In this document: positions 1-51,814 of the stretch, piece by piece
Layout of the letters: each line of letters starts with the position of its first letter
How positions within the stretch are numbered: the first letter of the stretch is position 1
Source: Thermotogota bacterium
Lineage (GTDB): Bacteria; Thermotogota; Thermotogae; Petrotogales; Petrotogaceae
DNA: 64,000 bases
Assembly: GCA_051748045.1 (NCBI GenBank)
Contig: JBNJGY010000001.1
Span: 96,001-160,000, forward strand
Direction of reading: 5' to 3'
Translations under genes and position numbers: made by a program
Notes under the pieces: generated by a model
Databases searched by the model: none
What the model saw: the letters and a program-made list of their open reading frames with translations, nothing else
Told to the model about the DNA's origin: nothing

Positions 1-22
1 ACAGCAACTCTTTATATTTTAT

Positions 23-760
23 TTATCCATTTATTATTTTTATACCAGAACTTGCCCCAATCCTTGTAGCTCCTGACTTGATCATCTTAGATGCTTTTTC
101 AAAATCTCTTATTCCTCCAGATGCTTTAACTTCTAAAGTTTCTCCAACAACAAATTTCATTAAAGAAACATCTTCTTCTTTAGCACCATCAGTCCCAAAA
201 CCAGTGGACGTTTTAACAAAATCTGCTCCTGCTATTTTTGACAAAACACAAGCTGCTATTTTTTCAGTTTTATCTAAGTAACAAGTTTCTATGATGACTT
301 TTACTAATTTATCATTTGATGCATCGACTACAGACTTTATATCAGAAAATATTTTGTCATATTGTTTTGCTTTTAACCAGCCTATATTAATTACCATATC
401 TAATTCATCTGCTCCATCATTTATAGCTATTTTAGTTTCTTCAACTTTTGATTCAGAAGATGTTGCACCTAAAGGAAACCCTATGACAGTGGCAATTTTA
501 ACTTCAGAATCTTTTAATGATTCAGCTGATATTTTTATCATGCTTGGATTTACGCAAACTGAGAAAAAATTATTTTCTTTTGCTTCCTGACATAGTTTCT
601 CTACATCATTTTCTGTTGCATATGCATGTAATAAAGTGTGATCAATCATTTGAGCAATTTCTTTGGGTTCAATATTTATGTCTTTGTATTCGTGTTTGTA
701 ATTTTTTTCTACTCTTTCAACTTCTTTTGATATAATTGCATTTAATTCTTTTAATTCCAC
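23..760 (-). CDS. deoC: Deoxyribose-phosphate aldolase
   Basis: IDHTLL, VIGFPLG, ELDMVIN, KVIIET, FVKTSTGF (Schiff-base Lys), VKASGGIR, RIGASS motifs. Confidence 0.97.
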   Translation of the reverse strand: MELKELNAIISKEVERVEKNYKHEYKDINIEPKEIAQMIDHTLLHAYATENDVEKLCQEAKENNFFSVCVNPSMIKISAESLKDSEVKIATVIGFPLGATSSESKVEETKIAINDGADELDMVINIGWLKAKQYDKIFSDIKSVVDASNDKLVKVIIETCYLDKTEKIAACVLSKIAGADFVKTSTGFGTDGAKEEDVSLMKFVVGETLEVKASGGIRDFEKASKMIKSGATRIGASSGIKIING

Positions 761-37655: not shown

Positions 37656-38849
37656 CTAAAATAATTTTTTTATAAATATATCTGGTTCTTTATCCTTAAA
37701 ATAAACAGAGAAAAAAACATATTTTCCATCATCGGAAAATGTTGGATAATATGTATCAACCTTTATATCTCTAGTTAAATTTAGTAAATTGTTATTGTAA
37801 TAGTAAAAAATATCATAAGATGCATTAAAATTATAAGAAAAAACAATTTTATCTGAATTATCAGACCATGAATCCATTTGATTTCTTGATAAATCAAAAA
37901 TATTTTTACTTTCTTCTTCATTTTTTATGTAAATTTTAACTTCTGCTGTGTGAGGGTCAATACCATAATAGATAAGATTATCTTTATAATATGAAGGTCT
38001 GTATTTCAACAGATTATCTTCAACTAGTATTTTTTTAGTCATAGTCTTTAAATTATATTCTACTATTCTATTATATTCTTCTACGTCATCAACTTCTTCT
38101 GAAAAAACTATTGTACTTTCATCTTTAAAATAAGGAGAATATCCGTAATAATTTTCTGTAACTTTCAAGAAATCATTCTTTTGCTTGTCATATAATACAA
38201 TATCCCAATTTCCAAATAGAGTTGATTGAAACACAAAAAAATTCCCATCAGGTGAAATGTCTGGAAAATATTCTGATGATAATTCAAGAGATATTTTTTC
38301 AGTTGAATTATTTTTTAAATCATAATAATATACTTCTCTATTTCCTTTGAATCTATCGCTTATAAAAGCTATTGTATCATTTCTCTTTATTGGGTATTCG
38401 TCCACACCATCATAGAAGGTTAACTGTAGAGTTTTCCAGCTTGAATCATGTTTAAACCTACTTAATGAGATTTTTTCTAATATATCGACACTCATTTCTG
38501 TAATCCAATCAGCAGAATTTTTTGACTTTATTTTTTTTAAATTGTTCTTACCTTCTATTTCATAATATACATTAATAATTTCTGTTGAGCTATTGGTTAA
38601 TCTTAAAAAAACGTCAGAATCATAGCTCATTTCTTTATTATAATCATAATAAGTAGCTAGATATTCAGTTTTGTTGGAACTGATTAATTCAAAATTATAG
38701 AAATAGCTACCTATTTCTACAATATTTTCAACCATTTGATTATGAAACCAGTCAGAACTATCATACTCAATAATCATTGAATTTTTATCGAAAGAAAAAC
38801 TTATTATAGAAATGATAATCAAAAAAATAAATAAAACCAATTTATTCAT
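37656..38849 (-). CDS. Exported TolB-like (PD40 beta-propeller) protein
   Basis: Signal peptide; IAFISDR..GNREVY, PDISPDG..FVFQS...GNWDI, PTFSDDGKYVFF. Confidence 0.8.
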   Translation of the reverse strand: MNKLVLFIFLIIISIISFSFDKNSMIIEYDSSDWFHNQMVENIVEIGSYFYNFELISSNKTEYLATYYDYNKEMSYDSDVFLRLTNSSTEIINVYYEIEGKNNLKKIKSKNSADWITEMSVDILEKISLSRFKHDSSWKTLQLTFYDGVDEYPIKRNDTIAFISDRFKGNREVYYYDLKNNSTEKISLELSSEYFPDISPDGNFFVFQSTLFGNWDIVLYDKQKNDFLKVTENYYGYSPYFKDESTIVFSEEVDDVEEYNRIVEYNLKTMTKKILVEDNLLKYRPSYYKDNLIYYGIDPHTAEVKIYIKNEEESKNIFDLSRNQMDSWSDNSDKIVFSYNFNASYDIFYYYNNNLLNLTRDIKVDTYYPTFSDDGKYVFFSVYFKDKEPDIFIKKLF

Positions 38850-38850
38850 T

Positions 38851-39288
38851 TTAATCAAGCTTTTCTTGAACTATTTTTTTCACTAAAGTTCCGTCGGCTT
38901 TTCCTTTCACTTTGGGCATAATTTTACCCATTACTTTTCCAAAATCTGTTTTATTTTCTGCTCCAACTTCTTTTATAACTTCGTCAACAATTTTTTCAAT
39001 TTCCTCTTTATTCATTTGTTCAGGTAAATATTTCATCAGAACCTTTATTTCTTCTTCTTCTTGATTTGCTAATTCATCTCTTCCAGCATTTCTATATTGT
39101 TCAGCAGAATCTTTTCTGTTTTTTATTTGTTTTTCTATTATCGATATTATTTCTTCGTCAGATAATTCTTTTTGTTTATCTATTTCTTGTTTTTTAATTT
39201 CTGCATTCACCATTTTAACAGTATTTAAAGCTATTTTGTTTTTTTCTTTCATATAATTTTTCATATCTTCCATAAGTTTCTTTTTCAT
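38851..39288 (-). CDS. GatB/YqeY domain protein
   Basis: DMK.YMK.K, K.R.DS..QY..AGR.EL, YLP.Q, GKVMG..MP..KGKADG. Confidence 0.95.
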   Translation of the reverse strand: MKKKLMEDMKNYMKEKNKIALNTVKMVNAEIKKQEIDKQKELSDEEIISIIEKQIKNRKDSAEQYRNAGRDELANQEEEEIKVLMKYLPEQMNKEEIEKIVDEVIKEVGAENKTDFGKVMGKIMPKVKGKADGTLVKKIVQEKLD

Positions 39289-41298: not shown

Positions 41299-41652
41299 CT
41301 ACCTCCTCTCAACTAATACAAAAGCTATTGCATATTCTTTTTCATGACTTATAGAAATTTTTATATCTACTTTATCAATTTTACCATTTAAATAAATCAT
41401 TGACTCTTTATCTATAAAAGGTTCTCCATTCTCTCTATTTAAAATAGTGATTGCATTAAAATCAAATGAAACATTTAAGGCTTTATATAAAGCCTCTTTA
41501 GCTGAAAATCTACCAGCTGCAAATTCTTTTTTTCTATTTTCATTTTTAAAATTGTTTATTATATTTTTTTCTTTTTCGGATAATATTCTAGAAATTATTT
41601 TTTCATTTATCCTTTGAATTCTTACAATATCAGTCCCTATTCCTTTAATCAT
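41299..41652 (-). CDS. acpS: Holo-[acyl-carrier-protein] synthase
   Basis: GIGTDIV, AGRFSAKEA..KAL, G.P, ISISHE..YA.A. Confidence 0.95.
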   Translation of the reverse strand: MIKGIGTDIVRIQRINEKIISRILSEKEKNIINNFKNENRKKEFAAGRFSAKEALYKALNVSFDFNAITILNRENGEPFIDKESMIYLNGKIDKVDIKISISHEKEYAIAFVLVERR

Positions 41653-43711
41653 AATACTTAAAAGTTATCACTGCTCCTTTAGGTATTTTTTGCATAAATG
41701 AACTAACTTTCTCTCCATTTAATTTTAGATCAAATGATTTTATATTTTTAGTATCAATTTCCAAATGAGAGAATAAATCGATTATGTTAGGTTCGTATTC
41801 TTCTTTAATTATTTTATAATTAGATCCATTTTTTACTTGAGAACTCAACTCAGTATGTTTAGTTCCATTTTTAATTATTATTTTTTCTTTTTCTAGTTTT
41901 ATTTTTTCTCCGTTGTAGTTAACCTCAAAAGTAGCTATATCTGTGTCAATAAATTCTCTTATTAGAGGTAATTCCAATTTTTTTGTTTGAAAATTATCGT
42001 TATTTCTAATATCTTCATTTTCATTAACTATTTGATCATTCCTAATGATAGAAACTTCTCCTGGAATTTCATAAGGAACACTATCTATTGTAAAATAAAC
42101 TGAATCAGAAAAATTTGAAACAACATCTTTAACTTTTGGACTTTTTGTTTTTATTTTTTGCCCATCTTTTAAAATTGTTTCAGGAGAAACTTCTTCTTCA
42201 TTTATTAATATTTTTGGATATATTTCTTTTGGTTCTCCATCTAAATAATATTTAATAGGTTCAATAATATCCTTTATTCTTATCTTTATTTCCTCACCTT
42301 GCTCTGGAGGATAAACTTCTATTTTATCTCCTGGTTTTACTTTAGATTTAAGATTTGATTTTTCCTCATTTATTTTAATCAAAGCTTCTTTTCCTAGATT
42401 ACCTTTTTTTATTTTAAACTCATCGTTTAACTCATATGTAATTGCCTTTGAAGGTTTCCCTATTAATTGATTTGGAGAATACCCAACTTGTAGTAAAACT
42501 TGCATTACTGAAAGATCTGTACCAATCATCATCATATTAACAACTGTTCCATTTACTGTGACTGAGTTAAAAACATTACCTTCTTTTTTTAATGCAGAAT
42601 TAGCAATACCTATCGGAGTTATATATTCGCTGCCAATCATCACATTTTCTTCAAATTTAATTTTCTGTAAATTATCTGTTGATTTTAAAGCAACTCTATT
42701 TTCAGATAATTCTAAATATTCAGATATTTTTTCTTTAAAAGTAGGAACTTTTCCTCCACCACCTACTAACATAACAGCAACCGGTGATTTCCCATTTAAT
42801 TCCAAAATTTTATTAGATATTTCTGAAGTTATTTTATCAATAGATTCTTTAATTATCTCTAAAATTTTTTCTTTTGATATTTCATGCTCAAAATCTAATA
42901 CATCTTTATATTTAAATGAATCTTTTTCATTTAAATGTTTTTTTATTTTTTCTGCTGTATTAAAATCAATCAATAGTTCCTTGGTGATAGCCTCTGTTAT
43001 TTCATCACCTGCTAAAGGAACCATTCCATATCCAGTTATAGTCCCTTCGTTAGAAATGGCTATGTCTGATGTACCGGCTCCAACATCTACCATAGCAATA
43101 TTTAGAGTTCTTAAATCTTCAGGAACAACTAAATTCATTGCAGCAATTGGTTCTAATGTTATATGAACAGGGGTAAGACTATTCATTTCTAAAACAGATA
43201 ACATGGCTTCAACTACATTTTTTGGTAAGAATGCAGCTATAACTTTTACACTTGCTTTTTTACCTTTTTGACCTTCTAAATGCTTTATCCATTCATCATC
43301 TAGTTCGTAATATAAAACTGAATAACCTACACAATACATTCCTTTTGAATAATCAAGTTTTTCAGTTGCTTCTTTTACAGCTTCTAATTCAATTTTTCTA
43401 ACTTGTGATTTATCTATAAATCCTTGAGAGCTAATATCTATCTCATATTCTCCTGTAGTTGTAATTAAAAATCTACCAGCTAAAGCAACAGCCACTTCGT
43501 GCGTTGTTTCTCCGGTTTTTTCATTTATATTTTCTAATATTTTTTTTACACCTTTTGCAACTTTATTTACATCATGAATCTGACCATCCATCATAGCCCT
43601 ATTTTCATGTTCTTTTTCAAAAGAATATTTAATAATTATATTTTCTTCTTCATCTATTTCTGCGAGTAATCCGACCAAGTTTCTTGTTCCTATATCCAAC
43701 GAAAAAACCAT
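41645..43711 (-). CDS. FtsA/PilM-like actin-fold ATPase with C-terminal beta-grasp-like repeats
   Basis: LDIGTR, LEPIAA, DVGAGTSD, AGD.IT, AEKIK, LVGGG; about 300-aa repetitive C-terminus. Confidence 0.85.
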   Translation of the reverse strand: MVFSLDIGTRNLVGLLAEIDEEENIIIKYSFEKEHENRAMMDGQIHDVNKVAKGVKKILENINEKTGETTHEVAVALAGRFLITTTGEYEIDISSQGFIDKSQVRKIELEAVKEATEKLDYSKGMYCVGYSVLYYELDDEWIKHLEGQKGKKASVKVIAAFLPKNVVEAMLSVLEMNSLTPVHITLEPIAAMNLVVPEDLRTLNIAMVDVGAGTSDIAISNEGTITGYGMVPLAGDEITEAITKELLIDFNTAEKIKKHLNEKDSFKYKDVLDFEHEISKEKILEIIKESIDKITSEISNKILELNGKSPVAVMLVGGGGKVPTFKEKISEYLELSENRVALKSTDNLQKIKFEENVMIGSEYITPIGIANSALKKEGNVFNSVTVNGTVVNMMMIGTDLSVMQVLLQVGYSPNQLIGKPSKAITYELNDEFKIKKGNLGKEALIKINEEKSNLKSKVKPGDKIEVYPPEQGEEIKIRIKDIIEPIKYYLDGEPKEIYPKILINEEEVSPETILKDGQKIKTKSPKVKDVVSNFSDSVYFTIDSVPYEIPGEVSIIRNDQIVNENEDIRNNDNFQTKKLELPLIREFIDTDIATFEVNYNGEKIKLEKEKIIIKNGTKHTELSSQVKNGSNYKIIKEEYEPNIIDLFSHLEIDTKNIKSFDLKLNGEKVSSFMQKIPKGAVITFKYYD

Positions 43712-43713
43712 TA

Positions 43714-46029
43714 TTACACCTCCACTACGGTTACTCCACTTCCGCCTTCACCAGTTTTACCTAATCTAAAATTTTTAATATCTTTATTGTTTCTTAAATA
43801 TTGCCAAATGCCTTCAGCAAGTTTACCGGATCCTTTTCCATGTATTATATAACCTTCATTCATTTCATTCAACATTAAATTTGAAAGTAAAATTTCTATT
43901 TCTGGTATAGCTTCTAACACTGTATATCCTCTTAAATCTATTTCAGGAACAACTTTTTTAGTTGGTGTATAGCTGATCTTACCTTGAGATACACTTTTTT
44001 CTTTCTTGTCTTTTTTCAATGGTTTTAATTCAGATAAATCGTAGGTTATTTCTATGGGTGTATCTTCAAGATTAACTTTTGCTTTCTTTCCTCTTATTTC
44101 TGTGATTTCACCTTTTTTATTTCCTTGAACAAATACTTTCATCCCTTTTTTAAATACATAATTAATTTTCTTATCTTCTTTTTTGTCTATTTTTTTGTTT
44201 CTAAATTGATGCTCTAATTCTTCTAGTTTTTTTATACTTTTCTTCGCTTCTTCTTCACTTTTGTTATTTTTGATAGTGTTTATAATTTTTTCAATTTCTT
44301 TTTTTGTATTTTTAATTTGTTGATTAAGATTTTTTATTTCGTTATCTAATTCTTCTATTTTTTGATCTTTTAATTTATCATATTTTTCGTTAAAATCTTT
44401 TTCTTTTTGTTCTAATTGTTTTCTTTTACTTTCATGAAATTCTTTATTGGACTGCATTTCTTCATATGTCCTAGAAATTTTACTAAAAATATTTTCGCTG
44501 TTTGAATGTTCAGAAGAAATGTATTCGTTAGCTTTATCTGTAATCTCTTTTAAAAAGCCCATTCTACTTGCTATCTCTATAGCATGTGATGCTCCAGGAA
44601 CTCCAGGCATTAGCCTATAAGTAGGCTTAAGAGTTTTCATATCAAAAGACATTGATGCTGATGTCAATTTGTTATTCTCAATTGAATATAGTTTGATTTC
44701 AGATAGATGTGAGGTCACAAATAATTTCACATTTTTGCCTATCAAGTAATCTATAATTGATTTACCAAGAGCAGACCCTTCTATTGGATCAGTTCCTGTA
44801 CCTAGCTCATCTATTAGTACTAAACTATTTTCATCAGCATTTTTTATTATTGTATTTATATTAACTAAATGAGCAGAAAAAGTACTTAAGTTTTGAGTTA
44901 TACTCTGTTCATCCCCCATATCAGTAAAGATATTTTTTACAAAAGGGATTTTTACTTGCATGCTTAAAACAGGTAACCCCACATGTGTAAGATAGAAAGC
45001 TACACCTATTGATTTTAAAGTGACTGTTTTACCCCCTGTATTGGGTCCAGTAATAATCATTCCATTGTTATCCAAATCAATTTCGAGAGGAACACATTCT
45101 TTTTCATCTAGTAAAGGATGCTTTAATTCTTTGAAATGAATTTTTTGATAACCCTTTTTTGGTATAAAATAATTGGCTTTTTTTTCAAAAGAATAATTGG
45201 CTTTAGCAATCTGATAGTCAATATAAGATAATACATCTATATTTTTATGAATTATCGAGACATTATTATTTATCAAAAGTTTTAATTCTGATAAAATTCT
45301 TGATATCTCATTTTTTTCTTTGTTTTGTAAATCAATCAATTCTTCATTAGATGAACTAATTCTTTCAGGTTCTATGAAATAAGTTGCTCCAGAATCTGAT
45401 CTGGCAACAAATAAGCCCTTAATATGCCTTCTATGCTCAGCTTTCACAGCTAGACAAAGTCTTCCATTTTTAAAGACAGGTTTTTCGATACTTAAAAATC
45501 TTGAATATTTATTTGTATAAGAAGAATATAAAGAATCAATCTTTTGTTTCGTTTTTCTTATTTTTGATCTTAGCTCTTTTAATAATTGAGAAGCAGTATC
45601 TTTAATTTCACCGTCTATATCTATTACATCATATATTCTGTTTGTCATATCTCTTAAAAAAGAAAATTTAATAAAAATATCAATGATATTTTTATCAAAA
45701 TTTTCTTTATTCTCTTTAAATTCTCTATATACTACTTGATGAAATTCTGCCACTCTTCTAAATTCTTTAATGTCATTTATCGAATTTGTTTTTATTCTCT
45801 CTAAAGTATCTTGGATATCTGGTATTCCTTTTATATCAAACAATAACTGTTTATTTTTTAACATAAAAAAACTTCGGGAAATATCTATTTCCCGCTGTAA
45901 TTTTTCTTGATCTGTATAAATTTTTATTTTTTGTTTTAGATATCTTTTACCATAAATACTGTGAGAATACTTGCCTATTATTTCCAGTATTTTATCTATT
46001 TCTAAATCTTTATATGTTTTTTCTAAAAT
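43714..46029 (-). CDS. mutS2: MutS2 family protein with C-terminal Smr domain (start extended beyond the ORF-track ATG at 45864)
   Basis: SGATYFIEP, HPLL, ITGPNTGGKT, GDEQSI.QNLSTFS.H, DELGTGTDP.EG, IDLRG, IIHGKGSG, EGGSGVT; upstream in-frame LEKTYKDLEIDKILE. Confidence 0.95.
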   Translation of the reverse strand: MLEKTYKDLEIDKILEIIGKYSHSIYGKRYLKQKIKIYTDQEKLQREIDISRSFFMLKNKQLLFDIKGIPDIQDTLERIKTNSINDIKEFRRVAEFHQVVYREFKENKENFDKNIIDIFIKFSFLRDMTNRIYDVIDIDGEIKDTASQLLKELRSKIRKTKQKIDSLYSSYTNKYSRFLSIEKPVFKNGRLCLAVKAEHRRHIKGLFVARSDSGATYFIEPERISSSNEELIDLQNKEKNEISRILSELKLLINNNVSIIHKNIDVLSYIDYQIAKANYSFEKKANYFIPKKGYQKIHFKELKHPLLDEKECVPLEIDLDNNGMIITGPNTGGKTVTLKSIGVAFYLTHVGLPVLSMQVKIPFVKNIFTDMGDEQSITQNLSTFSAHLVNINTIIKNADENSLVLIDELGTGTDPIEGSALGKSIIDYLIGKNVKLFVTSHLSEIKLYSIENNKLTSASMSFDMKTLKPTYRLMPGVPGASHAIEIASRMGFLKEITDKANEYISSEHSNSENIFSKISRTYEEMQSNKEFHESKRKQLEQKEKDFNEKYDKLKDQKIEELDNEIKNLNQQIKNTKKEIEKIINTIKNNKSEEEAKKSIKKLEELEHQFRNKKIDKKEDKKINYVFKKGMKVFVQGNKKGEITEIRGKKAKVNLEDTPIEITYDLSELKPLKKDKKEKSVSQGKISYTPTKKVVPEIDLRGYTVLEAIPEIEILLSNLMLNEMNEGYIIHGKGSGKLAEGIWQYLRNNKDIKNFRLGKTGEGGSGVTVVEV

Positions 46030-46589
46030 TGTAATGCCACCCCCATGGAAAATGGAAAATGATTTACTTTGAGATACGTATCGTCTTCATCATGATTTAC
46101 AAGTTTATAATATCTAGTTTCGTAACCAGCTAAAAGGTATATATTACTATAAGATAAACCTGCTTGAACTAATATCTCAGTAGAAAAAGTTTTTAAATAA
46201 TCAGGAGAATTTACTCCTCCATAAGCATTAACAGAAAAATTTAGATCTTTAAATAAAGGACTGTTGTATTTAACATTTAACCCCAAGGACAACCCTGTAG
46301 ATTTTATATCATCATTATATGCATTTAATGGTGAATTTTTTAATTTTTCTATATAAAATATTCCTATATATGGCCCATATTTTATTTCACCAGTATCTTC
46401 AGTATCTATTAAATAAGATACTCTTCCGCCAAGATAATCATATTCATAATTACCTTGTGTCAACTCATTTATTGCTTGTGAGGTCGCTTGATGAGTTAAT
46501 GAATAAGATGGTGAAATAAATAATTCAGCTGAGAAACTCATAATTGTAAAAATCAACATAGTTATTAAAATATAAATCTTTTTGTTCAT
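46023..46589 (-). CDS. Exported protein, probable small outer-membrane beta-barrel
   Basis: Signal peptide (SFSA); alternating hydrophobic/polar strands rich in Y/G; C-terminal FSMGVALQF ending in Phe. Confidence 0.65.
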   Translation of the reverse strand: MNKKIYILITMLIFTIMSFSAELFISPSYSLTHQATSQAINELTQGNYEYDYLGGRVSYLIDTEDTGEIKYGPYIGIFYIEKLKNSPLNAYNDDIKSTGLSLGLNVKYNSPLFKDLNFSVNAYGGVNSPDYLKTFSTEILVQAGLSYSNIYLLAGYETRYYKLVNHDEDDTYLKVNHFPFSMGVALQF

Positions 46590-49337: not shown

Positions 49338-51788
49338 TTAAAACATTTTTAATTGGCCATGTGGTGTTTTATATTTTTTCTTTTTTATATTTTTAATTTT
49401 TTTTAATCTATTTTCTAAATCTACTTTATCTGATAAATTATCTAAAACATCTTTTGCCCTATCTACTATTTCAGCTGGAAATCCTGCTAATCTAGCAACC
49501 TCAATCCCATAACTATTATCGCTTACCCCTTCTTCTATTTTATGTAAAAATAGAACTCCATCTTTTGTTTCTTTAACTTGAACTCTTTTTGTAATTACAT
49601 TTTCATAAATTTCAGAAAGCATTGTGAGTTCTGTATAATGAGTAGCGAATATAGTGTTTGATTTCAATACCTGGAATAAATATTCAGAAATAGCCCAGGC
49701 TACTGAAATTCCATCTAAAGTGGAAGTTCCTCTTCCAACTTCATCTAAAAGAACCAAAGAGTTCTCTGTAGCTTGATTCAAAATTGTTGACATTTCCATC
49801 ATCTCTACTAAAAAAGTAGACTTCCCAGTAACTATATCGTCTTTTGCACCAATTCTAGTAAAAATTCTATCGTATATAGGTATCTCAGCTTCATCTGCAG
49901 GAATAAAGCATCCTGATTGCGCTAAAATACTGATTATCCCTATTTGTCTAATATATGTAGATTTACCACTCATGTTAGGTCCTGTTAAAACTATAAATCT
50001 TTTTTCTTGAACCTCGAAATCATTTTTTGTAAAAGTTTCAACAAAGTTTTCAACAACTGGATGCCTTGAATTTATTATTTTTGATTTGTTTCCTTCAACA
50101 AAATTTGGCCTATTATAATTATTTATTCTACTTATTTCAGCGAAGTTAATTATTACATCTAAAAATCCAATCTTTGCAGATATTATTTTTAATTCTTTTA
50201 TATGTTTTGATATTTCTCTTATAAAATTATTAAAAATTGTTTTTTCAATTTTTTTAACTTTTTCTTCTGCTATAATAACTTTTTTTTCTAATTCTCTTAG
50301 TTCTTCTGTGATAAATCTTTCTGTGTTTGTAAGTGTTTGCTTTCTTATATATTCTCCTGGAACATTATTGGATTGTGCTTTTGATACTTCTATATAAAAA
50401 CCATAAATTTTATTTCTTCCTAATTTTAAAGTATTGATTCCTGTTTTTTCTTTTTCTCTCTTTTGAATTCTTTCTAAAAATGTATCTATATCAGTAATTA
50501 AACTTCTATATTCGTCTAGTTCTTGAGATATATTTTCTTTTACTACTTTTCCATCTCCTGGTTCATTTGATGGTTCATCAAATATATGTGTTTCTATTTC
50601 TTCCTTTAAATCATTTTTTAAATTAATATTCTCAAAAAAATCTTTCAACTTATCATTAATCTCCAAAGTTTCTTTTATTAAAGGGAGTTGAATCAAAGAG
50701 TCTTTTAAAGCTATTAAATCTCTTGGGGTTGCCTTTTCAAGAGATATCCTTGATATTATTCTATCGATATCTTTTATATAAGAAAGATATTCTTTTACCT
50801 CTTCTGAAATAAAAGTGTCTTCATAAAATATCTCTACCAAATCGAGTCTTTGATTTATTTTTTCTTTTTGTATCAATGGACGATTGAGAAAATCTTTTAA
50901 TTTTCTATGACCCATGGGTGTTTTTGTTTTTTTTAATATTTCATATAATGATTTTCCTCGATTTTCATCTGGAATAATATTTAAATTAGTCATAGTATTT
51001 ATGTCGATATACATAAAGTCTTTTGATTTGAATTTTTTTGGAATATTTAGATGCTTAATTTTTTTAAATTGAGTTAATTCTAAGTATTTTAAAACCGCGT
51101 CTAAACTATTTAGCTCTTTTGAATCGAATGGCAAATGATCTAGAGATAATAAATCATATGACTCTTTGATATGTTCTTCATAATTTGAAGAAAAATACCA
51201 TTCATCAAGTATTTCAATATATATTTTTTCTGAAACTGATTTTATTTCATTTTTCAAATTTCTCAATTTATAGCTCAACAATACTTGTGAATAATTATTA
51301 GATATGATTAAATCTAATAATTCATTTTGAGAAATATCAAATCTATCTATATAGAGTTCTCCAGTTGAAAAATCAAATAAAATTATTATATATTGGTTAT
51401 TTTTATCATCTTTATTTATTAAAATACTAAACCTATTATTTTCATCCAGCATATTATCTTCAATAATTGTCCCAGGAGTAATAACTCTTGTAACTTCTCT
51501 TCTTACTATACCTTTTGATGCTGAAGGCTCTTCTACTTGCTCACAAATAGCTACTTTTAAACCGTTGTCTAGTAACTTTTTCAAATAATTATCCAAAGCA
51601 TGATATGGTATTCCTGCCATAGGATAATTGTTTCTTTTTGTTAACACTATTTGCAAGATTTCTGATATTTTTTTTGCATCGTCAAAAAAAGTTTCATAAA
51701 AATCGCCTAATCTGAAAAGTAATACAGAATCTTGATTTTTTTCTTTTATTTTCATGTATTGTTTCATCATTGGTGTATACTCAGCCAT
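49338..51788 (-). CDS. mutS: DNA mismatch repair protein MutS
   Basis: TPMMKQY, FRLGDFYE.F..DA, AGIPYH, TPGT, TGPNMSGKST, DEVGRGTST.DG, FATHY, SYGIEVA. Confidence 0.98.
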   Translation of the reverse strand: MAEYTPMMKQYMKIKEKNQDSVLLFRLGDFYETFFDDAKKISEILQIVLTKRNNYPMAGIPYHALDNYLKKLLDNGLKVAICEQVEEPSASKGIVRREVTRVITPGTIIEDNMLDENNRFSILINKDDKNNQYIIILFDFSTGELYIDRFDISQNELLDLIISNNYSQVLLSYKLRNLKNEIKSVSEKIYIEILDEWYFSSNYEEHIKESYDLLSLDHLPFDSKELNSLDAVLKYLELTQFKKIKHLNIPKKFKSKDFMYIDINTMTNLNIIPDENRGKSLYEILKKTKTPMGHRKLKDFLNRPLIQKEKINQRLDLVEIFYEDTFISEEVKEYLSYIKDIDRIISRISLEKATPRDLIALKDSLIQLPLIKETLEINDKLKDFFENINLKNDLKEEIETHIFDEPSNEPGDGKVVKENISQELDEYRSLITDIDTFLERIQKREKEKTGINTLKLGRNKIYGFYIEVSKAQSNNVPGEYIRKQTLTNTERFITEELRELEKKVIIAEEKVKKIEKTIFNNFIREISKHIKELKIISAKIGFLDVIINFAEISRINNYNRPNFVEGNKSKIINSRHPVVENFVETFTKNDFEVQEKRFIVLTGPNMSGKSTYIRQIGIISILAQSGCFIPADEAEIPIYDRIFTRIGAKDDIVTGKSTFLVEMMEMSTILNQATENSLVLLDEVGRGTSTLDGISVAWAISEYLFQVLKSNTIFATHYTELTMLSEIYENVITKRVQVKETKDGVLFLHKIEEGVSDNSYGIEVARLAGFPAEIVDRAKDVLDNLSDKVDLENRLKKIKNIKKKKYKTPHGQLKMF

Positions 51789-51814
51789 CAATAGTCCTCC
51801 TGCTTCAAAAAATT

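Follow-up and report, generated by a model that had tools for sequence, protein, structure and literature searches.

A cytoplasmic FtsA paralog of Thermotogota with a predicted tail of five interleaved beta-grasp domains, encoded next to mutS2

Introduction

FtsA, known from structures of the T. maritima (1e4g and 4a2a) and E. coli (7q6d) proteins, combines an actin fold of the FtsA/PilM-type domain arrangement and its nucleotide motifs with an amphipathic membrane helix and a gene adjacent to ftsZ. PilM (2ych and 5eou) is an ATPase-fold protein of the type IV pilus platform. Here, we analyze a protein that shares the fold, the domain arrangement, and the nucleotide motifs of FtsA but scores below the FtsA family cut-off, has no amphipathic membrane helix, is not adjacent to ftsZ, and carries a 310-residue beta-grasp tail. 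It is encoded in a 64,000-nt stretch of DNA (“the window”) from a Thermotogota bacterium of the Petrotogaceae (assembly GCA_051748045.1, contig JBNJGY010000001.1, positions 96,001 to 160,000). An initial annotation of the window had proposed that a single open reading frame (ORF) in it specifies an actin-fold ATPase followed by a chain of five interdigitated ubiquitin-like (Ubl), or beta-grasp, units.

Beta-grasp domains of the ThiS, MoaD, and TGS types are marked by V.VNG and GD.IE sequence signatures. Chains with several beta-grasps are also known. The eukaryotic USP7 HUBL region has five Ubl domains per chain, and these domains are contiguous. Other examples are linear polyubiquitin and the bacterial Ubl3 proteins (BilA/BubA; 9cd2, 9d5a, and 9d59). 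According to preprint 10.1101/2024.11.21.623966, bacterial multi-Ubl proteins contain one to three sequential domains, are encoded in operons with E1, E2, and JAB genes, and form Ca2+-dependent filaments; the terms “domain-swap,” “interdigitat,” and “intertwin” are absent from the text of that preprint.

Results

The target is a second FtsA-like ATPase

The proposed ORF is present at full length on the reverse strand (Table 1), and the nearest database relatives of its product, referred to below as the target, are Geotoga proteins (84% identity). The N-terminal part matches the Pfam families FtsA, MreB_Mbl, and PilM_2, the last of which matches all 65 full-length homologs (37 to 94% identity) included in our family alignment. 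Residues 2 to 344 align to positions 2 to 348 of the 371-position NCBIfam ftsA model TIGR01174 with a score of 103.9 bits against a cut-off of 175.85, and the NCBIfam pilM model gives 58 bits against a cut-off of 133. The ftsZ-linked FtsA of the same genome also falls below the TIGR01174 cut-off, at 153.7 bits. In the 65 homologs, the phosphate-1 (D6, G8, and T9), phosphate-2 (D209 to D216), and adenosine (G317 to G319) motifs are invariant, and so is glutamate E187 of the TLEP motif.

The AlphaFold2 (AF2) model of the full-length target has a mean predicted local distance difference test (pLDDT) score of 83.3. When this model was compared to the Protein Data Bank (PDB) with Foldseek, the best matches were FtsA structures, with template modeling (TM) scores of 0.80 to 0.85 on the target and E values of about 1e-27, at sequence identities of 16 to 19%. 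PilM came second (TM of 0.66 to 0.76), followed by EutJ and MreB. The assignment of actin/FtsA ATPase motifs to the first ~380 residues is thus borne out by both the structural matches and the invariant columns.

The genome contains a separate ftsA gene directly upstream of ftsZ, at about 30 to 32.5 kb of the same contig (G000:C1). This pair lies ~105 kb from the target (C1:137.6-139.7 kb) and outside the window (C1:96001-160000), in line with the earlier statement that the window itself holds no ftsZ. The ftsZ-linked FtsA has 436 residues and a basic amphipathic C-terminal tail, and the target is 19% identical to it over 360 residues. In the ftsZ-linked protein (L001:1255-2565; G000:C1 about 31.3-32.6 kb), the sequence FGYHMC stands where the target keeps the glycine-rich phosphate-2 loop VGAGTS. 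The target’s translation ends without such a tail, as had been noted. No membrane-targeting helix or flexible linker is present; the last actin-fold helix runs straight into the first beta-grasp, and the chain ends in a beta-strand. Of four FtsA features compared, the target therefore has the fold and lacks the other three, namely a score above the family cut-off, the membrane helix, and the ftsZ linkage. The target also differs from PilM, which has no beta-grasp tail: no pilN, pilO, pilP, or pilQ, nor any other pilus gene family, was found by the Pfam scan of the 11 neighboring ORFs, the part of the window searched for them. Since the canonical ftsA-ftsZ pair sits elsewhere in the genome, the target is not the division FtsA; it is a second FtsA-like ATPase, a cytoplasmic paralog of FtsA.

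Repeated motifs of the tail follow a conserved order

The last ~300 residues contain three motif types, which we denote A (a V.VNG-type hairpin), h (a short helix), and B (an I.ING..L..GD.IE-type half). The 15 strings that the initial annotation lists for these types, five for each, all occur in the translation in the order given there, and the chain indeed ends in KYYD with no GG. In both the target and the family consensus, the segments read A1 h1 A2 B1 h2 A3 B2 h3 A4 B3 h4 A5 B4 h5 B5. The repetition exceeds chance. When the sequence was compared with itself, the windows that matched best were offset by 56, 59, and 65 residues, and a profile of the [A B h] unit detected four copies in the target, at residues 421-484, 484-532, 536-589, and 593-658, with scores of 24 to 52 bits. 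The profile test is partly circular because the profile was built from family members. The sequence unit does not coincide with the proposed structural domain: in unit 1, for example, A2 and h2 belong to domain 2 and B1 belongs to domain 1.

Among the 65 aligned members, Pfam ThiS was matched in 29, TGS in 24, and Ub-Mut7C in 22. Wherever match positions were inspected, only the last 20 to 30 positions of the ThiS, TGS, and S4 models, corresponding to the B motif, were matched; a match limited to the C-terminal end of the profile is expected for a domain that is split in sequence. In homologs P0310 and P0276, the S4, FHA, TGS, and ThiS matches all fall on one 20- to 30-residue NG...GD.IE motif, and the S4 and FHA labels on some family members are probably motif-level cross-matches. 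A PDB sequence search with the whole protein returned actin-fold relatives only and nothing for the tail, while an ESM Atlas search returned only ThiS-labeled clusters with scores of 0.90 or below, which serve as leads only.

The tail is predicted to consist of interleaved beta-grasp domains

An AF2 model of residues 376 to 688, made with a 94-row alignment, has a mean pLDDT of 91.2 and a predicted TM score (pTM) of 0.60, the latter being the sole hint at a fixed geometry. In a Foldseek search of the PDB, this model is matched best by linear tetra-ubiquitin and by bacterial Ubl proteins with three domains (E values of 1e-6 to 2e-4), which agrees with the proposal of five Ubl units. USP7 HUBL, which has no sequence relationship to the target, is also matched, weakly (E values of 5e-3 to 4e-2).

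Full-length single beta-grasps were aligned to the tail model with VIA. TGS 3hvz aligned over 62 of 64 residues (Z of 7.9) on model span 5..95, Mth1743 1ryj over 64 of 70 residues (Z of 8.0) on span 107..208, MoaD 6jbz_B over 61 residues [Z of 8.7, root mean square deviation (rmsd) of 1.8] on span 218..313, and ThiS 1zud_2 over 59 of 65 residues (Z of 7.9) on span 221..313. Each span runs from hairpin n to the last strand of half n. Since whole beta-grasps of 64 to 70 residues fit spans of 91 to 102 residues, 30 to 40 residues of each span would come from neighboring domains, and the domains would be discontinuous. The beta-grasp fold is thus supported by VIA for domains 1, 3, and 5 (Z of 7.9 to 8.7 and rmsd of 1.8 to 2.2); for domains 2 and 4, it is backed by covariation only.

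Covariation was assessed by mean-field direct coupling analysis (DCA) of 249 family members aligned to the tail (effective number of sequences of about 165). The 90 top pairs of the whole-length analysis include the same-index hairpin-half pairs A2-B2 (53-139, 53-137, and 52-146), A1-B1 (10-88), A4-B4 (163-247), and A5-B5 (224-311), as well as h1-B1 (27-72, 30-83, and 41-91). The noisy whole-length map was then replaced by a repeat-stacked DCA, in which the five repeats were stacked as pseudo-sequences and different pairing schemes were compared. For same-index A(n)-B(n) pairing, the mean of the top five inter-block couplings was 1.65 and 1.30 in two four-repeat subsets. In contrast, the sequence-adjacent A(n+1)-B(n) pairing gave 0.91, and other offsets, used as controls, gave 0.93 to 1.04; the bootstrap SD was about 0.06 to 0.13, and shuffling proteins within a repeat index lowered all schemes to 0.1 to 0.3. 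The strongest couplings of the same-index pseudo-domain connect the beta1-beta2 and beta3-beta4 hairpins, beta1 with beta5 (A-2 with Bg+2), and beta3 with beta5, and therefore fit a beta-grasp.

A natural variant is also consistent with interleaving. A 561-residue homolog (L031:7671-9356, genome G024) reads A1 h1 A2 B1 h2 A3 B2 h3 B3, i.e., two whole [A B h] units are gone and both end caps are kept. Among deletions, only the loss of whole [A B h] units, with both caps retained, keeps an interleaved chain closed. Further short forms, with reading frames of 565 to 573 residues, occur in one Thermotogota family (also G025, G030, and G031). Together, the VIA spans, the covariation, and the three-domain variant support the proposed interdigitation, in which the hairpin of unit n+1 would follow the helix of unit n and precede the C-terminal half of that unit.

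Distribution and public names of the family

A search with the tail alone yielded 403 clusters at 50% identity (E values up to 1e-3). Among the 150 clusters listed, most proteins have ~650 to 740 residues with the match beginning near residue 380; the rest are shorter and may be fragments. Named members come from Thermotogota, Dictyoglomota, Clostridia, Peptococcaceae, and Epulopiscium, and Dictyoglomota and Clostridial members show the identical five-domain order when their sequences are read. Within Thermotogota, the tail was found in 117 of the 151 genomes searched and in 0 of the 25 genomes of one family (f2).

The unit profile mostly found four to five matches whatever the length of the protein. 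Because proteins of 780 to 870 residues show no extra units, length variation mostly does not reflect repeat number; the clear exception is the 561- to 573-residue three-domain form.

Public databases name family members “cell division protein FtsA,” “FtsA domain-containing,” “PilM,” “rod shape-determining,” or “hypothetical,” so the expectation that such a protein would be auto-annotated as FtsA was correct. Our literature searches returned no description of the family, of an FtsA–beta-grasp fusion, or of interleaved beta-grasp arrays. The term-matched passages of two beta-grasp surveys (PMC1779556 and PMC1949818) do not describe the family, although their supplements may list such an architecture; “FtsA,” searched for in PMC1949818 only, has no occurrence there, and the matches to “actin” shown from PMC1779556 are all “actinobacteria.”

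Gene order connects the target with mutS2 and rqcH

In the window, the target gene directly follows mutS2 and directly precedes acpS on the same strand (Table 1). Two nucleotides separate the mutS2 stop codon from the target ATG, the final codons of mutS2 contain a Shine-Dalgarno sequence (GGAGGTG), and the last codons of the target overlap the acpS ATG by 8 nt. Given the layout of both junctions, mutS2, the target, and acpS appear to be translationally coupled.

Gene order was also surveyed in Thermotogota. The 37 loci fetched represent 36 distinct ones (L006 and L052 are one contig). mutS2 is directly upstream of the target on the same strand in 26 of the 37 loci (25 of the 36 distinct ones). 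In three others, which are all three genomes of family f11, the gene directly upstream is rqcH, encoding an NFACT protein, and rho precedes rqcH. Six loci, from family f6 and its like, have neither gene upstream, and two are cut by contig ends. When coordinates were compared by eye in the 117 genomes with the target, mutS2 was directly upstream in 86, within about 2 kb in 3, and non-adjacent in 21 (18 from family f6 and the 3 from f11); no call was made for 7. The mutS2 link is kept across at least eight families while other flanking genes change, and stop and start codons often overlap.

MutS2 and RqcH are two of the four factors of ribosome-associated quality control (RQC) that PMC11317155 names for Bacillus subtilis. 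Of two collided ribosomes, the stalled one is split by MutS2, after which RqcH adds a tail to the nascent chain on the 50S subunit. The coupling to mutS2, replaced by rqcH in f11, is the best functional clue available for the target.

A complex prediction for the full target with MutS2 residues 405 to 716, with the N-terminal 404 residues left out, gave a score of 0.00 (mark, 0.32) and counts neither way. Joint decay of mutS2 and the target in one genome (L058, G074:C7:117000-135000) was considered as evidence and rejected, since dxs, acpS, and ligA are frameshifted there too; all five genes differ in frame from a close relative, which looks like an error-prone assembly and not like gene decay.

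Features of the locus

The positions of the target’s segments and of the surrounding genes are collected in Table 1.

Table 1. Features of the target gene and its surroundings. Positions refer to the window.
Feature	Position	Strand	Basis or remark
FtsA-like ATPase with C-terminal beta-grasp array, whole ORF	41645..43711	-	688 aa + stop
FtsA-type actin fold including 1C-type insert, residues 1-375	42587..43711	-	TIGR01174 alignment, invariant columns, Foldseek
N-terminal cap, hairpin A1 + helix h1 of predicted beta-grasp 1, residues 381-420	42452..42571	-	Model secondary structure; VIA span 5..95
Sequence unit 1, A2 + B1 + h2, residues 421-484	42260..42451	-	Unit profile 38.3 bits; covariation A2-B2, h1-B1
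Sequence unit 2, A3 + B2 + h3, residues 485-535	42107..42259	-	Unit profile match 484-532, 51.8 bits
Sequence unit 3, A4 + B3 + h4, residues 536-592	41936..42106	-	Unit profile match 536-589, 24.1 bits; VIA span 107..208 covers A3-B3
Sequence unit 4, A5 + B4 + h5, residues 593-657	41741..41935	-	Unit profile match 593-658, 31.2 bits
C-terminal cap B5 closing predicted beta-grasp 5, residues 658-688, no GG	41648..41740	-	VIA span 218..313
mutS2 (MutS_V + Smr domains), directly upstream of target	43714..46029	-	
acpS, directly downstream of target	41299..41652	-	
188-aa ORF	46023..46589	-	No Pfam match at E up to 1e-5
400-aa ORF	37656..38858	-	No Pfam match at E up to 1e-5
mutS (domains I-V)	49338..51791	-	

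The G+C content of the window is low (about 0.25 to 0.35). The target belongs to a same-strand run of genes that reads mutS, asp23, nusB, dxs, a 188-aa ORF, mutS2, target, acpS, ligA, and yqeY. The Pfam scan of the 11 neighboring ORFs identified GAF, YqeY, LigA, ACPS, MutS2, Dxs, NusB, Asp23, and MutS families and left two ORFs without a family. One of these, the 188-aa ORF, is conserved: related genomes (L005, L034, and L035) also have it beside dxs and mutS2. The run thus includes two MutS paralogs on one strand within 8 kb, separated by asp23, nusB, dxs, and the 188-aa ORF.

Homology of mutS2 to TIGR01069 (positions 2 to 789) begins ~55 codons 5′ of the first ATG, at 45864, and reaches to about 46029. 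The in-frame 5′ stretch (45865-46035, reverse strand) contains no ATG, GTG, or TTG. Candidate starts are ATT codons at 46035 and 46029, which overlap the 188-aa ORF upstream at its stop codon. It seems likely that the mutS2 start codon is non-canonical.

At f6-type loci (L007, L030, L044, L045, and L046), a conserved trio lies downstream of the target, namely a pfkB kinase gene, a gene for a CBS protein, and one for a radical-SAM UPF0004 methylthiotransferase (MiaB/RimO-like), and an SNF2-family helicase gene is often found upstream.

Discussion

We consider it reasonably probable, with the models and the covariation taken together, that the target is an FtsA-paralog ATPase carrying five interleaved ThiS/TGS-like beta-grasp domains. 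The tail resembles its beta-grasp relatives in fold and signatures; it would differ from ThiS, MoaD, and TGS in that its domains are split by pieces of their neighbors, lack a GG terminus, and, in domains 2 to 4, have helices of a single turn. Like the bacterial Ubl3 proteins and linear polyubiquitin, it places several beta-grasps in one chain; unlike Ubl3, the five domains would be interleaved and are fused to an ATPase, with no conjugation genes among the neighbors scanned.

The proposed architecture would work as follows. An FtsA-type domain with intact ATP-binding motifs is fused without a flexible linker to a tail of ~310 residues and has no membrane anchor. The hairpin of domain n+1 would interrupt domain n after its helix and before its C-terminal half, so that the chain would pass three times between neighboring domains [h(n) to A(n+1), A(n+1) to B(n), and B(n) to h(n+1)]. 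The tail would then consist of an N-terminal cap (A1 h1), four [A B h] copies, and a C-terminal cap (B5), resembling a run-on domain swap within a single chain. Such triple stitching may make the tail a stiff spacer or scaffold that projects from the point at which the membrane tether is attached in FtsA. The ATPase domain presumably binds ATP; as is the case for FtsA and PilM, it may associate with itself or grip a peptide from a partner. By analogy, the target may work like a scaffold ATPase of the FtsA/PilM type. Gene order suggests that its partners could belong to the ribosome-rescue machinery.

Several points weigh against parts of this explanation. The structure is all predicted; each VIA alignment gives only its first and last aligned residues, and of the 50 rows listed for each of the two VIA searches, none covers only domain 2 or only domain 4. 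Helices h2 to h4 of the tail model have only 4 residues and h5 has seven, so domains 2 to 5 would be atypical beta-grasps. The whole-length DCA is noisy, with diagonal A-by-B blocks of 0.66, 0.93, 0.64, 0.62, and 0.70 against off-diagonal values of 0.49 to 0.83, and in the stacked helix-to-B and hairpin-to-helix comparisons, same-index pairing was not separable from controls. Because the sequences overlap the AF2 input, covariation is an independent method but not independent data. On the functional side, family f6 has mutS2 adjacent in 0 of 18 genomes and unrelated flanking genes, and the sole non-Thermotogota locus obtained (L036, the only one from a metagenome scan with the tail of a Clostridial homolog) has polA-coaE upstream. 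Since mutS2 is present in 151 and rqcH in 145 of the 151 phylum genomes, there is no phyletic co-occurrence signal, and the f2 genomes have both genes while the target is absent from all of them. Because related genomes are not independent, the adjacency amounts to about one ancient linkage and one re-linkage.

The one-turn helices, the lack of a VIA row on domain 2 or 4 alone, and the non-diagonal whole-length block table would also be accounted for if the tail were an ordinary tandem array of self-folding units of ~60 residues, or if the extra hairpins were simple insertions, the interleaving being an artifact of AF2 fitting a familiar fold; the known bacterial multi-Ubl proteins, according to the preprint cited above, are sequential. 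Nevertheless, full-length ThiS, MoaD, and TGS structures align from hairpin n to half n rather than within one sequence unit, A(n+1)-B(n) covariation stays at the control level while A(n)-B(n) covariation is clearly higher, and the chain opens with a hairpin and helix lacking their own half and closes with a half lacking its hairpin, as interleaving requires. A simple array is therefore unlikely. That the domains act as sulfur carriers or conjugated Ubl modifiers is more unlikely by far. The sequence signature is ThiS-like, and the structural matches include ThiS, MoaD, SAMP1, and Urm1, but the C terminus has no GG, and the remaining four domains lie inside the chain; being discontinuous, the tail domains could not be released as units. 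No gene for an E1-like adenylating enzyme, JAB, E2, or MoaE/ThiG was found among the 11 neighboring ORFs scanned, so the earlier conclusion that the target is not a conjugated modifier holds.

With respect to function, the target may be a cytoskeletal or division-related, filament-forming FtsA paralog in which the beta-grasp rod serves for spacing or docking; its place next to mutS2 would then be inherited synteny without function. We regard this as possible, with the balance somewhat against it. FtsA and then PilM are the closest structures, the nucleotide motifs are invariant, the gene is embedded in extended runs of housekeeping genes that are unrelated (nusB, dxs, acpS, ligA, and yqeY), f2 retains mutS2 and rqcH without it, and in f6 and at L036 its neighbors are unrelated. 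However, the target has neither a membrane-targeting helix nor a link to ftsZ, the mutS2 link persists in at least eight families, often with stop/start overlap, while other flanks vary, and f11, the one family in which another RQC gene stands in place of mutS2, has rqcH there. That the target assists MutS2 in DNA processes, for instance repair or the control of recombination, and not in ribosome rescue, appears improbable. MutS2 was initially reported as a DNA-binding protein that suppresses recombination, ligA and mutS lie nearby in the window, and polA is present at L036; yet the alternative partner in f11 is rqcH preceded by rho, both acting on RNA or ribosomes, and the beta-grasp relatives at the sequence level are of the ThiS and TGS types, with no matched family being DNA-binding. 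From gene order, we tentatively propose, while holding it to be somewhat doubtful, that the target works with the RQC machinery (MutS2 and RqcH) and not in cell division. A more specific version, that the family is an unrecognized RQC component in Thermotogota, and perhaps in Clostridia and Dictyoglomota, whose ATPase and stiff five-Ubl rod act with MutS2/RqcH on collided ribosomes or 50S–nascent-chain complexes, is more speculative still.

If the structural prediction holds, five beta-grasps, each split by its neighbors, would constitute a natural run-on domain swap in one polypeptide; we found no solved structure or paper with an interleaved single-chain beta-grasp topology. Such a topology bears on the evolution of repeats, since the unit that is duplicated and the structural domain are out of register, and it also bears on the design of stiff protein rods. 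Since members of the family, with about 700 residues, are named FtsA yet have no membrane tether or ftsZ linkage, and since the genome studied here has a separate ftsA, inventories of division genes in Thermotogota, Dictyoglomota, and Clostridia are likely miscounted. For a protein without an assigned role, the tight and ancient coupling to mutS2, and to rqcH in one family, provides a concrete lead. If the RQC reading were true, it would place a ubiquitin-fold array and an ATPase of the Hsp70/actin superfamily in prokaryotic RQC, echoing the ubiquitin and ATPase steps of eukaryotic RQC.

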